This document shows positions 13,501-59,386 of a stretch of DNA of 64,000 bases, piece by piece. A program made the translations under genes and the position numbers. Source of the DNA: an uncultured Mycoplasmatota bacterium (GTDB taxonomy: Bacteria; Bacillota_I; Bacilli_A; RF39; UBA660). The stretch lies in assembly GCA_946488855.1 (NCBI GenBank), contig CAMLWC010000001.1, positions 2,688 to 66,687 of the forward strand, given 5' to 3'. How positions within the stretch are numbered: the first letter of the stretch is position 1; every line of letters starts with the position of its first letter. Under the pieces are notes generated by a model that saw only the letters and a program-made list of their open reading frames with translations, was not told where the DNA came from and searched no databases.

Positions 13501-14040
13501 ATGGAATTAAAAGGAAGTAAAACAGAACAAAATTTAATGGCTGCTTTTGCAGGAGAATCTCAAGCTAGAAATAAGTATACTTATTATGCTTCTAAAGCAA
13601 AAAAAGAAGGCTTTGAGCAAATTGCTGCTATATTTGAAGAAACAGCAGGAAATGAAAAAGAACATGCTAAAATATGGTTTAAATTATTACATGGTGGTAA
13701 TGTACCAAGTACTATCGAAAATTTAGAAGATGCTGCAGCAGGTGAAAATTATGAATGGACAGATATGTATGCAGGCTTTGCAAAAGAAGCTAAAGAAGAA
13801 GGCTTTGATCATATAGCATTTTTATTTGAAAGCGTTGGTAAAATTGAAAAAGAACACGAAGAAAGATATAAGGCTTTACTAGAAAATGTTAAAGCAGAAA
13901 AAGTATTCAATAAAGGTACAGATGAAATGTGGATTTGTCGTAATTGCGGTCATGTTCATTTTGGTAAATCTGCTCCTAAAGTATGCCCAGTTTGTGAACA
14001 TCCTCAAAGTTATTTCGAATTAAGAAAAATAAATTATTAA
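13501..14040 (+). CDS. rbr: rubrerythrin
   Basis: Ferritin-like diiron ExxH motifs (EKEH twice) plus a C-terminal rubredoxin-like CRNCG...CPVCEHP. Confidence 0.9.
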
Positions 14041-14065
14041 AAGCAATTTTTTGCTTTTTTTTTTT
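14041..14065 (+). terminator. rho-independent terminator
   Basis: AAGCAA-TTTT-TTGCTT hairpin followed by T9. Confidence 0.6.
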
Positions 14066-14161
14066 GATAAAATTTAAATTTAAATAAAGCATTTATAAAA
14101 ATGAAGCAAATACTTTAATTAAATAAGATATTTATTTTTTTCATATACTTTTACTTTACGC

Positions 14162-30264: not shown

Positions 30265-30717
30265 CTATTTAGCTTTATTTAAGGCATCTTCTAGTGCTTT
30301 ATATAATGCATCAACCTTGATTGTGCAAGTACTCACAGCATCAGTATAACCATCTTCATCAACATGTAAGAAATCAATTCCTTGATTATCAATTACAGCT
30401 TGTTCTAATGCTTCAACTTGTTCAAACCATTCATAATCAGCTTGACCATAACTACTGTTGCCTTTTTTCATTCCATAATCTTTACCTAAAGTTTTTTTAG
30501 TTGTTTCTACTCCATCTTTTGTATAAGTAGTATCTAAATATACATCAGTAATTTTACCATTGTTATCAATAGTAACTTTGGCTGTAGCAGTATTTTCCTC
30601 ACCACCATAATTATCAATGGCACTACCTTCATATGTTCCTTCTTTTAAAGAATTAGATCCACATCCAGTAAGCATAACTGTGACTAATAATATACTTAAT
30701 AACTTCTTCATCTTCAT
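30265..30717 (-). CDS. FMN-binding domain lipoprotein
   Basis: LVTVMLTGCGS lipobox followed by an FMN-bind-like domain with Ser/Thr flavinylation context. Sits next to ApbE. Confidence 0.6.
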   Translation of the reverse strand: MKMKKLLSILLVTVMLTGCGSNSLKEGTYEGSAIDNYGGEENTATAKVTIDNNGKITDVYLDTTYTKDGVETTKKTLGKDYGMKKGNSSYGQADYEWFEQVEALEQAVIDNQGIDFLHVDEDGYTDAVSTCTIKVDALYKALEDALNKAK

Positions 30718-32514: not shown

Positions 32515-32571
32515 TACCTAATTATAACAAAAAAAGACAAAATTTTCTAGATAATTTCGTCTTTAATACTT

Positions 32572-33363
32572 TTAAATACCACCAGAGACTTGAATATTGT
32601 CATAATTTTTAATAAAAGTATAGTTTAACTTATTATTTTCAATAATTATTTTATACTCATTTATTGAATCAAAATTATTTTCTTTAATCGCTTCATCAAT
32701 TCCATAAATCATAATATAATTATTTTTAATTATAGTGAAGTTAAAAATGTCTTCATCATCACCATAATTAAATTTATTAGTAACATTTGAATTTTTTATT
32801 TGAACTACTTCAAGAGTGCTAGAACTATTAATAAAATTGCCTAATTCCAATCCATTTGAATTAAACACTTTTAAATAAGAATTAGTAGAACCACCAACAT
32901 AGTTATTAACAAAATAATAATAAGCAAATCCATTATCAATAGAGTAAAATTTTTCTTTATTCATCATATATGGTATATTTTTATTCTTAATAAATTCTTC
33001 TATAGAATCTTTTTTCAAAAGAAAATTATTTGAAAATGAATCTATTGTTTTACCATTGTACGTTAATTTAGTAATATATTCTACAACTATATCTTCATCA
33101 ACATTTCCAAAATTTTCATCAACATTTTCGTTTACATCAAAAATATATTGAATTGAAACTTTTTTATTGTCATCAATTTGGACAGTATCATCAATTTTTA
33201 ATTTTTTCAAATCTTCAATGTATTCTTCAGTAGTCTTATTTTCTTCTTCACTATCATTGTACCCTGGATTTTTATTATCTAGAGTATTAGTATTTATTGT
33301 ATTATTTTCTTCTTTTTTTCCTTCGGTATTATTTTTTATGACAACAAATATTATTATAATCAA
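32572..33363 (-). CDS. N/K-rich secreted or membrane-anchored hypothetical protein; N-terminus out of frame with its ATG/RBS
   Basis: The body ORF begins KIVKKNIIIATLIIVILIIIIFVV in frame 0 and is preceded by a stop. An ATG with a GGAGAAATAT RBS sits at 33415 in the +1 frame. The two are separated by an A9 run (33395-33403); A8 would fuse them. Confidence 0.5.
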   Translation of the reverse strand: MIIIIFVVIKNNTEGKKEENNTINTNTLDNKNPGYNDSEEENKTTEEYIEDLKKLKIDDTVQIDDNKKVSIQYIFDVNENVDENFGNVDEDIVVEYITKLTYNGKTIDSFSNNFLLKKDSIEEFIKNKNIPYMMNKEKFYSIDNGFAYYYFVNNYVGGSTNSYLKVFNSNGLELGNFINSSSTLEVVQIKNSNVTNKFNYGDDEDIFNFTIIKNNYIMIYGIDEAIKENNFDSINEYKIIIENNKLNYTFIKNYDNIQVSGGI

Positions 33364-33428
33364 TATTACTATAATTAAAGTTGCTATTATTATATTTTTT
33401 TTTACTATTTTTCATATATTTCTCCTTT

Positions 33429-34619
33429 TTAAATAATTTCATCTTTAATATTTTTATTGTTTAAAACTTTTACTAAATAATCAATTTCTTCTTTAGTATT
33501 ATAAAAATATAAACTTATTCTACATGTGTTTTTAATACCTAATTCATCTTTTAATATTTTGGCGCAATGATTACCTGCTCTTACACAAATATTATATTTA
33601 TTAAGATAAATAGCTAAATCTTGAGAAAATATATCTTTAATATTGAAAGTTATAATTCCACTTTCACTGTTTTCATTGTAAATAATAATATCTTTTACAT
33701 TTTTTAATTTATCAATAGCATATTTTTTTAATTCTAATTCATATTTAGAAATATTACCCATTCCAATTTTATTCAAATATTTAATGGCCTCACCTAAACC
33801 AATTACACCAGCTATATTAGGTGTTCCTGCTTCTAATAAAGATGGTAATTCGTTATAAACTCTAGTCCCATCAAATTGAAAGCTAGCGTTCATACCACCA
33901 CCAAATATAATTGGTTTAATATTATTTAATAATTCTTCTTTACCATATAAAACACCAACACCAGTAGGCCCTAACATTTTATGTGCAGAAAAAGCTAAAA
34001 AATCAATATCTAAATCTTGTACATCAATTTTAGTATGAGCAACACTTTGAGCTCCATCAATAACAACTAAAATTTTTTTACTATGAGCATATTCTATTAT
34101 TTCTTTAATAGGTCTAATATCTCCTACTACATTTGTAATATGAGCTATACTAATAACTTTAGTTTTAGAAGTAATACTATTTTTAACATTATCTAAAGTA
34201 ACTTCTAAATTTTTTAAAGGTATATAATTTACTTTTATTTTTAATTCATCTTGTAATTCAAACCATGGCAATATATTAGAAGCATGTTCACTTTTAGTAA
34301 TTAATACTTCATCATCTGGTTTTAGATAATTTTTAAAATAACCAAATATTATTTTATTTAATGAATCTGTGGCTCCACTTGTAAAGATAATTTCTTTATT
34401 TTTTTTAGCATTTATAAATTCTTTTACTAAAGTTCTAGTTCCTTCATATTTATTATCAACTTCTAGTGATAAATCATAATCACCACGATGCGCATTAGCA
34501 CTATAATTATTATAATAAAGAGACACACTATTAGCTATACACATTGGTTTTAAAGAAGTAGCTCCATTATCAAAATAAACAATATTTTTAGTTAATATAT
34601 TAAAATCTTCCCTATTCAT
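33429..34619 (-). CDS. sufS: cysteine desulfurase (SufS)
   Basis: PLP-Lys motif SAHKMLGPTGVGVLYGK and the active-site region. Length 396 aa. Confidence 0.85.
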   Translation of the reverse strand: MNREDFNILTKNIVYFDNGATSLKPMCIANSVSLYYNNYSANAHRGDYDLSLEVDNKYEGTRTLVKEFINAKKNKEIIFTSGATDSLNKIIFGYFKNYLKPDDEVLITKSEHASNILPWFELQDELKIKVNYIPLKNLEVTLDNVKNSITSKTKVISIAHITNVVGDIRPIKEIIEYAHSKKILVVIDGAQSVAHTKIDVQDLDIDFLAFSAHKMLGPTGVGVLYGKEELLNNIKPIIFGGGMNASFQFDGTRVYNELPSLLEAGTPNIAGVIGLGEAIKYLNKIGMGNISKYELELKKYAIDKLKNVKDIIIYNENSESGIITFNIKDIFSQDLAIYLNKYNICVRAGNHCAKILKDELGIKNTCRISLYFYNTKEEIDYLVKVLNNKNIKDEII

Positions 34620-58563: not shown

Positions 58564-59307
58564 TTATCCCTCCAATATTTTTTTATTTAAAAGACAATCA
58601 ACACCATCAATTTTTATTTTATCTGTTAATATACCAACAATAACATTATTTTTAACCATTCCTTCTATTTCGATTTTATCTACTTTAAAACATTTTATTA
58701 ATCCATCACCTTTCACACATTTATAAGGAATATAAAAAAAATTATCTATTTTTATTTCTTTATCAATTAAGATAACTGGTTTATTTGTTATAGGTGTAAC
58801 TAAATTATTACCGGTATCTAAAAATGAATTAAATAAATATTTTTTATTTTTATAGTAAATATTTATTTTATAATAATTACTATAATTATTTTTCAGCCAT
58901 AATCCTTGTTTAATATAAATATATATAATAATTGGACTAAATATGATTAAAAAAATAAAATTAATTGATAAACCATTATTTATAAATATAATACCATATT
59001 GCTTATATGAAAACTCGACATTTAAAAAATATAAAAATCCACCTAAAACAATACTAGTCATATATAGATATAATATATTTTTTAAAGTATACTTAATATT
59101 TTTATAACCAAAACTTATTATAACCATAACAATACTTATAATTATTTTATATAAGAATAATAATAACGAATTACTCACAAATAAAAACAAAATACTAATT
59201 CCGCCTACAAAAGATCCACTTATTATTTTATAAATACTTACATTTCTTCTAAGTAATATAGAAATAGCAAGTAATAACAAAAAATCAAATATAAAATTTA
59301 AAATCAT
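58564..59307 (-). CDS. spoIIGA: sigma-E processing aspartic peptidase
   Basis: Five TM segments in the N-terminal half. C-terminal FLDTGNNL D-S/T-G aspartic protease motif. Immediately upstream of sigE. Confidence 0.85.
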   Translation of the reverse strand: MILNFIFDFLLLLAISILLRRNVSIYKIISGSFVGGISILFLFVSNSLLLFLYKIIISIVMVIISFGYKNIKYTLKNILYLYMTSIVLGGFLYFLNVEFSYKQYGIIFINNGLSINFIFLIIFSPIIIYIYIKQGLWLKNNYSNYYKINIYYKNKKYLFNSFLDTGNNLVTPITNKPVILIDKEIKIDNFFYIPYKCVKGDGLIKCFKVDKIEIEGMVKNNVIVGILTDKIKIDGVDCLLNKKILEG

Positions 59308-59386
59308 TATTAAATCTAAATATATTTTCGTATAATTATCACCTCTATTTAAATTATAAAAAAAAAATCATCAAAATTTTGTCATT

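Follow-up and report, generated by a model that had tools for sequence, protein, structure and literature searches.

A fixed one-base insertion in a 5' poly-A tract, probably an early step in the loss of an accessory gene of an uncultured gut Mycoplasmatota bacterium

Behind sufS, on the minus strand of the window (the whole stretch of DNA analysed, 64 kb in length), a gene is found whose start codon and body lie in different reading frames, with a run of nine adenines (A9) between them. This raises the question whether the locus is a switch, a site of recoding, a sequencing error or a gene that is being lost. As read directly on the minus strand, the codons AAA AAT AGT stand between the ATG and the A9 run, which begins 12 nt past the first base of the ATG. 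The ATG frame stops at 33331-33329, after 28 codons. The body frame, one base later, translates as KIVKKNIIIATLIIVILIIIIFVVIKNN... and follows a TGA (33414-33412) that overlaps the ATG (33415-33413). This arrangement, in which the ATG frame closes early and the body continues in the next frame, had been described by the sequence-only reading and is present as it said. Since the first canonical start (ATG, GTG or TTG) in the body frame is TTG 33363, ORF callers report a product of 263 aa. When one A is removed in a computed repair (A8), the locus reads MKNSKKNIIIATLIIVILIIIIFVVIKNN..., with a length of 280 aa. The features are collected in Table 1. A 37-aa ORF from an upstream ATG within sufS was also considered and rejected, since it merely shares the frame of the real ATG and has no ribosome binding site (RBS). 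An alternative genetic code was likewise discarded, as table 11 yields around 93% coding sequence and full-length Suf proteins.

Table 1. Position of the features of the locus in the window
Feature	Position	Strand	Remark
sufS stop codon TAA	33431-33429	minus	Direct reading
Left copy of the 31-nt direct repeat (sufS 3' end)	33426..33456	minus	Spacing 882
Shine-Dalgarno AGGAG	33422..33426	minus	6-nt spacer before the ATG; direct reading
Authentic start codon ATG	33413..33415	minus	Intact orthologue begins at the equivalent ATG
A9 homopolymer (T9 on the plus strand), frameshift site	33395..33403	minus	Intact allele is A8
28-codon dead-end ORF MKNSKKKYNNSNFNYSNIDYNNICCHKK from the ATG, stop included	33329..33415	minus	Direct reading and ORF list
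Body reading frame	32572..33411	minus	Opens right after TGA 33414-33412, ends at stop 32574-32572
Signal-anchor (single transmembrane) coding segment IIIATLIIVILIIIIFVVI	33337..33393	minus	Body frame; common to the three lineages
8-bp frameshifting deletion in strain L001 (A9 lineage)	33071..33078	minus	Two called ORFs, 95 and 148 aa
Right copy of the 31-nt direct repeat	32544..32574	minus	Overlaps the stop codon of the gene
Terminator-like hairpin, 12-bp stem followed by a U run	32529..32564	minus	MFE -11.1 kcal/mol, z = -2.0

To follow the A9 run through public assemblies, the neighbouring SufS was looked up by exact protein match, which makes the choice of contigs blind to tract length. Eight contigs from eight assemblies were obtained and A9 is present in 8/8. 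A look-up of the 263-aa product gave eight further loci, seven with A9 read directly and one with A9 inferred by alignment. Together, A9 is found in 16/16 public contigs of the lineage that cover the site (that one being inferred from the alignment), from at least 13 samples. These 16 loci come from SPAdes-style and other scaffold assemblies as well as from Logan contigs. Two of them, L001 and L003, which carry SNPs within the gene and next to it and represent a slightly divergent sub-lineage, have A9 as well. A sequencing or assembly indel, one of the two origins proposed by the sequence-only reading, does not stand up to this result, as A9 is reproduced in all 16 independent contigs, by several assemblers and in several projects. 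A9 is a genuine one-base insertion that is fixed in the lineage of the window. Among 15 billion public proteins, none of the in-frame alleles of this lineage (A5, A8 and A11, on both backbones) was found, and its 90% cluster consists of three members, each of 263 aa.

Next, related genes were searched for. The family consists of three 90% clusters among 5.8 billion proteins. An HMM search of 1.84 billion representatives gave nothing beyond the family itself, and a protein alignment search of the GTDB species genomes gave 459 pattern hits and no relative. A scan of the JGI metagenomes with the junction pattern for all three lineages resulted in 0 matches. The sister lineage (lineage 2, P0002) is 74-78% identical, and its intact orthologue has an ATG and then A8, reading MKKNIIIIGLIIIILVMLIFVIV... 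(MKKNIIIIGL...). The proposal that an A8 tract would fuse the signal anchor to the body is thereby borne out, as in this orthologue A8 keeps the ATG in frame with a signal anchor of the same type. The homologue comparison also showed that the signal-anchor segment is conserved in the three lineages. In lineage 2, A8 alleles are found in L017, L018 and L107, and A7 alleles arose independently on an L017-like backbone (L106) and on an L107-like backbone (L108). L106 reads ATG AAA AAA ATA TAA. L108 has, besides A7, three more lesions: a second A run that slipped by +1, a nonsense codon (TCA to TAA) and a deletion of 127 bp. In lineage 3 (P0003, 79% identical, taking in the NCBI MAG GCA_944331815.1), the tract is interrupted. 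Here, L025 reads ATG GAA AAT AAT TAA AAA TAT ATA..., with the in-frame length and a nonsense TAA at codon 5, and L019-L024 have the same nonsense codon together with a 1-nt deletion. The 28-residue dead-end peptide MKNSKKKYNNSNFNYSNIDYNNICCHKK is without conservation, with A7 strains reading MKKI followed by a stop.

Since the in-frame length is 8 in lineage 2 and in L025, A9 would be the derived state. The slipped homopolymer is indeed the lesion, as the sequence-only reading suspected, and tract length varies between A7, A8 and A9 among related strains. The tract has slipped at least three times independently, and this length variation among strains has the look of a genomic signature of slipped-strand switching. 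In-frame and out-of-frame lengths coexist in the sister lineage (A8 and A7), and the window's own lineage has A9 only.

The surroundings of the tract were then compared with the rest of the window, which has a GC content of 23.7% and is around 93% coding. In these 64 kb, there are 102 A/T runs of length 7, 31 of length 8 and three of at least 9. The two other runs of at least 9, T11 (14055) and A10 (59358), lie between genes, making A9 at 33395-33403 the sole coding run longer than 8. The T11 run comes after a hairpin, which itself lies past a stop codon. Twenty-four coding-strand A8 runs are located in ordinary genes of the window, sufS and sufD included, and all of these are in frame. Based on the decay ratio from length 7 to length 8, around 11 coding runs of at least 9 are expected and one is observed (P ~2e-4 for one or fewer). 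No other frame-breaking coding homopolymer was found within the 64 kb. The genome of the window tolerates A8 inside genes and not A9, and the lone exception breaks a frame, which is what an A8-to-A9 slip in a losable gene would look like. Because A8 runs are common and in frame in ordinary genes, A8 is regarded as ordinary lysine coding here and not as a designed switch.

The A8 product has a Lys-rich start and one hydrophobic segment of 19 residues (residues 8-26) with a Kyte-Doolittle mean of 3.87. No Cys, no lipobox and no second hydrophobic stretch were found when this product was scanned. Following the positive-inside rule, the protein is predicted to be membrane anchored with an extracytoplasmic body. 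Pfam gave sub-threshold hits to the hydrophobic N-terminus only and no domain. The AlphaFold model has a mean pLDDT of 63 and is confident for residues 41-180, which are mostly beta. A Foldseek comparison of this model to the PDB gave nothing at E <= 0.001, with TM-scores of at most 0.27.

Whether the gene can be missed was studied in 80 sufS-anchored loci fetched from GTDB species representatives. A tblastn search of the protein against these loci from related species gave no match. In 20 of the 80, from 20 congeneric species, apbE is retained nearby; here sufS adjoins apbE with a gap of 36-111 nt, and no trace of a gene remnant was found between the two. A tree of sufS and apbE does not group the three gene-bearing lineages into a single clade. 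The gene is dispensable: it is missing from close relatives, including L030 (Ca. Faecisoma merdavium), of which the flanks are 96% identical to those of the gene-bearing L017. Where present, it is carried on an 882-bp unit between two 31-nt direct repeats (family D2, 87% identity). The right repeat copy equals the sufS 3' end (with TAG) at the empty sites of relatives and is the left arm of the terminator-like hairpin, a hairpin that was not picked up by a stricter consensus terminator scan of 32529..32564. Since the right repeat forms an arm of this hairpin, the gene would be the last cistron of the suf transcript in filled loci. The dS of the body is 0.51-0.66, in line with that of the flanking genes (0.34-1.27). 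Therefore, an old presence followed by repeated loss is favoured over recent transfer, and this repeated loss probably took place by recombination between the direct repeats.

The dN/dS of the body between lineages is 0.17-0.25. With a value of around 0.2, the body was once a real protein-coding gene. A three-taxon comparison gives branch values of 0.23 and 0.27 in the A9 and the nonsense lineage, respectively, compared to 0.14 in the intact one. Compared to the window, L003 has three changes in the body, all of them nonsynonymous. Within the A9 lineage, the body thus counts 0 synonymous and 3 nonsynonymous differences versus 11 synonymous and 3 nonsynonymous in the flanks (Fisher P = 0.03, on small numbers). 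The flank count omits sufS (as contigs were conditioned on its identity), low-coverage contigs and a block of the FMN-binding gene that looks recombinant. Differences seen in one contig only were not scored as polymorphisms where coverage was very low or where they lay at the end of a contig (L005, L013, L014 and P0001). These three SNPs and the one deletion in a metagenome assembly (that of L001, Table 1) point toward a constraint that may have been relaxed after the slip. In 15/16 A9 contigs, the body ORF is still intact. The RBS and ATG are fully conserved, with AGGAG being identical across every contig of the A9 lineage. Two OFF (out-of-frame) strains have further lesions, L001 with A9 in an early and L108 with A7 in an advanced state of decay. 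The combination of intactness and purifying selection in OFF strains, as expected of a phase-variable gene, was not found in these small numbers. What is found are the marks of a frameshift pseudogene, i.e. a fixed disruption compared to an intact orthologue, dispensability, and secondary lesions or relaxed selection, the latter being a weak signal (P = 0.03).

Taking these results together, the locus is rather probably an accessory gene of which the OFF allele is fixed and early decay has begun. The gene would have evolved under purifying selection and would now be in the course of being lost in this gut Mycoplasmatota group (Ca. Faecisoma-like). During replication, a +1 slipped-strand insertion (A8 to A9) would have occurred in a poly-A that codes for the Lys-rich start of the signal anchor. 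Ribosomes would still initiate at the RBS and ATG, read Lys-Lys-Lys across the tract and terminate after 28 codons. The anchor and the beta-rich body of around 250 aa, located in the +1 frame, would then remain unmade except for rare slippage products. As for the order of loss, a slip of the tract may be the usual first hit, followed by more lesions and finally by deletion of the whole unit. We infer the direction from A8 to A9, replication slippage as its cause, the membrane topology, the lack of the protein and the relaxed selection. An intact body, RBS and ATG would be equally expected of a gene that was switched off recently or in a reversible manner. Moreover, recurrent independent slips together with a consensus OFF state in all samples could reflect selection on a switch and not neutral loss.

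Several known systems resemble this locus. In Mycoplasma hominis, vaa has a 5' poly-A in which 8 A's are ON and 7 or 9 are OFF, with switching at 1e-3 to 1e-4 (PMC524362); this poly-A switch goes back to Zhang & Wise 1997, as summarised in PMC524362 and PMC2831843. Both cases have a poly-A in the 5' coding end of a (here predicted) surface protein gene of an AT-rich bacterium from a wall-less lineage, with A8 in frame and A7 and A9 out of frame, and all three lengths occur in the present gene family. However, reversible vaa switching was measured in clonal cultures, whereas here the differences are fixed between strains and the OFF strains are further lesioned. There is also no sequence homology, Vaa being a lipoprotein adhesin and the present protein an uncleaved-looking signal anchor. 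In Bacillus subtilis, swrA changes from A9 to A8 at ~1e-4 and from A8 to A9 at ~1e-5 (PMC2831843), and in Listeria monocytogenes, inlA has a 5' A6/A7 tract (PMC2831843). Like the present gene, these are Bacillota genes with a 5' poly-A in which a one-base slip inactivates a non-essential gene, and OFF is fixed in some lineages (laboratory B. subtilis strains and L. monocytogenes lineage II). In contrast to those conserved genes with known functions and measured reversion rates, the present gene has no homologues outside the three lineages, is variably present and is often deleted outright. By analogy, the locus may resemble vaa and swrA in that tract length would decide expression and that both OFF lengths occur in nature. 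Poly-A frameshifts are also known from the AT-rich endosymbionts Buchnera and Blochmannia, and rescue by slippage from T. thermophilus dnaX, Shigella mxiE/spa13 and C. rodentium tssM1 (PMC5009743, PMC4256274, PMC5574713, PMC3017870). The present locus shares with these a very AT-rich genome and a frameshift in an A run of 9, the length of the RNA-DNA hybrid, which permits slippage. Unlike here, where the out-of-frame arrangement is lineage-specific, it is conserved in known cases of programmed slippage and both products matter; in addition, a rescue would need -1 or +2 here and not the favoured +1.

A working contingency locus, in which A8 (ON) and A7 or A9 (OFF) interconvert by slipped-strand mispairing and OFF cells dominate the samples, is a possible reading that we consider doubtful, and the same doubt applies to the idea that this dominance results from, e.g., antibody or phage pressure on the surface protein. 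It fits the position of the tract at the 5' end of a gene for a predicted membrane-anchored extracytoplasmic protein, the occurrence of A7, A8 and A9 in related strains with at least three independent slips, and the placement of the genus in the Mycoplasmatota by NCBI. The vaa and swrA precedents (PMC524362, PMC2831843) also speak for it, as do the intact RBS, ATG and body ORF in nearly all A9 contigs. However, no length heterogeneity is seen in 16 contigs from at least 13 samples, all of them consensus assemblies, and no ON allele of the lineage is present among the 15 billion proteins. Further inactivating lesions occur in the OFF strains L001 and L108, there is a nonsynonymous excess within the A9 lineage, the tract is destroyed by a nonsense codon in the third lineage, and most relatives have the gene deleted in its entirety. 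Also, A8 is commonplace in housekeeping genes, so no adaptive explanation is needed. In its fullest form, this would be a Vaa-like A7/A8/A9 switch of a lineage-restricted surface protein, with A9 maybe being leaky and with OFF alleles and deletions recording selection by antibody or phage, an account to which we give roughly one chance in four. Neither MutS nor MutL was found in the ten window ORFs scanned (most of the largest included), a result that concerns window ORFs only and not the rest of the genome.

Recoding, in which RNA polymerase slippage gives A11 or A8 mRNAs or ribosomes shift +1 on A AAA AAA, so that anchored protein would be made in a lowered but still functional quantity and A9 would be an expression-tuning allele, seems improbable to us. 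Nine A/T are reported to cause efficient slippage of bacterial RNA polymerase, with one to several bases being added (PMC5009743), and the tssM1 frameshift of C. rodentium is rescued in this way on A11, at 20-25% (PMC4256274). Exactly MKNSKKNIII would result if tRNA-Lys shifted by +1 on the run, and A9 is the sole coding run of at least 9 in the window. Against this, the out-of-frame arrangement is not conserved, with orthologues having A8 in frame, A7 or a nonsense codon, and programmed transcriptional slippage thus finds here the required run length (~9 A/T, PMC5009743) without the conserved arrangement. A rescue requires -1 or +2, whereas slippage at A/T runs is dominated by insertions of one base, with deletions being rarer, and no transcripts with a restored frame were observed in Buchnera (PMC5574713). 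As to the ribosome, there is no +1 stimulator: neither a stop nor a rare codon is present in the 0-frame at the run, and the RBS, the only Shine-Dalgarno sequence, is located 18 nt before it. Past the tract, the 0-frame reads AAA TAT AAT and a stop is reached only at codon 29, unlike a +1 frameshift of the prfB type, for which a 0-frame stop or hungry codon at the shift site and a Shine-Dalgarno-like stimulator some 3 nt before it are required. The signs of relaxed constraint and the 8-bp deletion within the A9 lineage do not agree with recoding either. Finally, it is very improbable that the ninth A is an error or that translation starts at TTG 33363 or ATA 33408, and this artefact or alternative-start reading is essentially refuted. 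Homopolymers are classic error sites, and gene callers do give the 263-aa product from TTG 33363. Nevertheless, the run recurs across independent contigs, assemblers and projects, and no other coding homopolymer breaks a frame in 64 kb. TTG 33363, which had been put forward as a possible alternative start, lacks an RBS, and a product begun there would keep only 9 hydrophobic residues, not enough to span a membrane; the intact orthologue uses the upstream ATG. ATA 33408 is located 13 nt from the RBS and 4 nt past the last base of a perfect ATG.

We therefore return to the fixed OFF allele of an accessory gene as the preferred reading. As the lineage is homogeneous, the OFF strains are further lesioned and A8 is ordinary Lys-Lys-Asn coding, the locus was not filed as phase-variable; active phase variation is plausible but unproven. 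For annotation, this means a frameshifted gene with its authentic start at ATG 33415 and the frameshift in the A run 33395-33403. A 263-aa protein from TTG 33363 is the wrong record, and 'correcting' the tract as a sequencing error would be wrong too.

The locus also illustrates a sharp ceiling of 8 for coding homopolymers. If mixtures of A8 and A9 were true at the read level, Vaa-type poly-A switching would be extended to uncultured gut Mycoplasmatota. Here, almost all stages by which a reduced, AT-rich gut bacterium loses an accessory gene are represented in public metagenomes, from the intact gene (A8), via a slip only (A7 and A9) and a slip with further lesions, to precise excision between direct repeats.

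The accessory gene between sufS and apbE, which is split from its ATG by an A9 tract, is carried by a unit bounded by two copies of the sufS 3' end (see table). At the empty sites of relatives that do not carry the gene (L026-L033 and L037), only a single copy of the repeat is found, the one that ends in TAG, and the region upstream of apbE that comes after it is the same. The gene is present in L017 of the sister lineage and absent in L030 (Ca. Faecisoma merdavium), though the genomes are 96% identical. Taken together, the repeats, the one-copy empty sites and this difference suggest that the unit may have been excised via recombination between the repeats or, alternatively, have been added by a cassette-like insertion. 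The left arm of the terminator-like hairpin 3' of the gene is duplicated sufS 3' coding sequence; at the empty sites, the same arm is formed by the final sufS codons themselves.

Features of the accessory unit and its surroundings (window coordinates)
Feature	Position	Strand	Remark
31-nt direct repeats, sufS 3' end	33426-33456 and 32544-32574		flank the 882-bp unit carrying the accessory gene
Terminator-like hairpin	32529-32564	minus	3' of the accessory gene
Promoter-like TAGAAA-17-TGnTATAAT for apbE	32549-32521		after the accessory gene
Lipoprotein-like gene	30265-30717		150 aa

In L108 (2575-3340, sample SRR14620898), the sister-lineage orthologue is an advanced pseudogene: its 5' tract is A7, another A run some 80 nt further downstream has slipped by +1, a TCA codon has become a TAA nonsense codon, and 127 bp are deleted close to the 3' end. 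Both sufC and sufD are located upstream of sufS in the window and the sister lineage, but not at that position in L019-L021 (lineage 3, GCA_944331815.1), where sufS directly follows a HIT-family gene.

Within the window's own lineage, the window differs from L001/L003 at only about 20 positions over approximately 7 kb outside one dense block (30598-30712), which holds eight nonsynonymous and eight synonymous differences in about 115 nt. This block covers the 5' end of the lipoprotein-like gene, where the signal peptide is encoded, and looks like either a tract of recombination or an N-terminus that evolves quickly. Mismatches are clustered in L005 and L013, whose coverage is about 2.6x and 4.4x respectively; many lie near contig ends, and some give apparent nonsense codons in the sufD and apbE genes. 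Assembly errors probably account for them, which makes such low-coverage contigs unfit for polymorphism counts.

Only two other long homopolymers occur in the window, a T11 (within 14020-14066) and an A10 (59358-59367). The former is likely a terminator, being located immediately 3' of a short GCAATTTTTTGC hairpin that lies beyond the stop codon of a gene with its end at 14040; the latter lies in a 79-nt spacer between genes ending at 59307 and 59387. Window-wide, 24 coding-strand A8 runs were counted, and the frameshift site is the only coding run of at least 9, with about 11 such runs expected from the length-decay ratio. This sharp upper limit on coding homopolymers is consistent with selection against tracts of RNA-DNA hybrid length.
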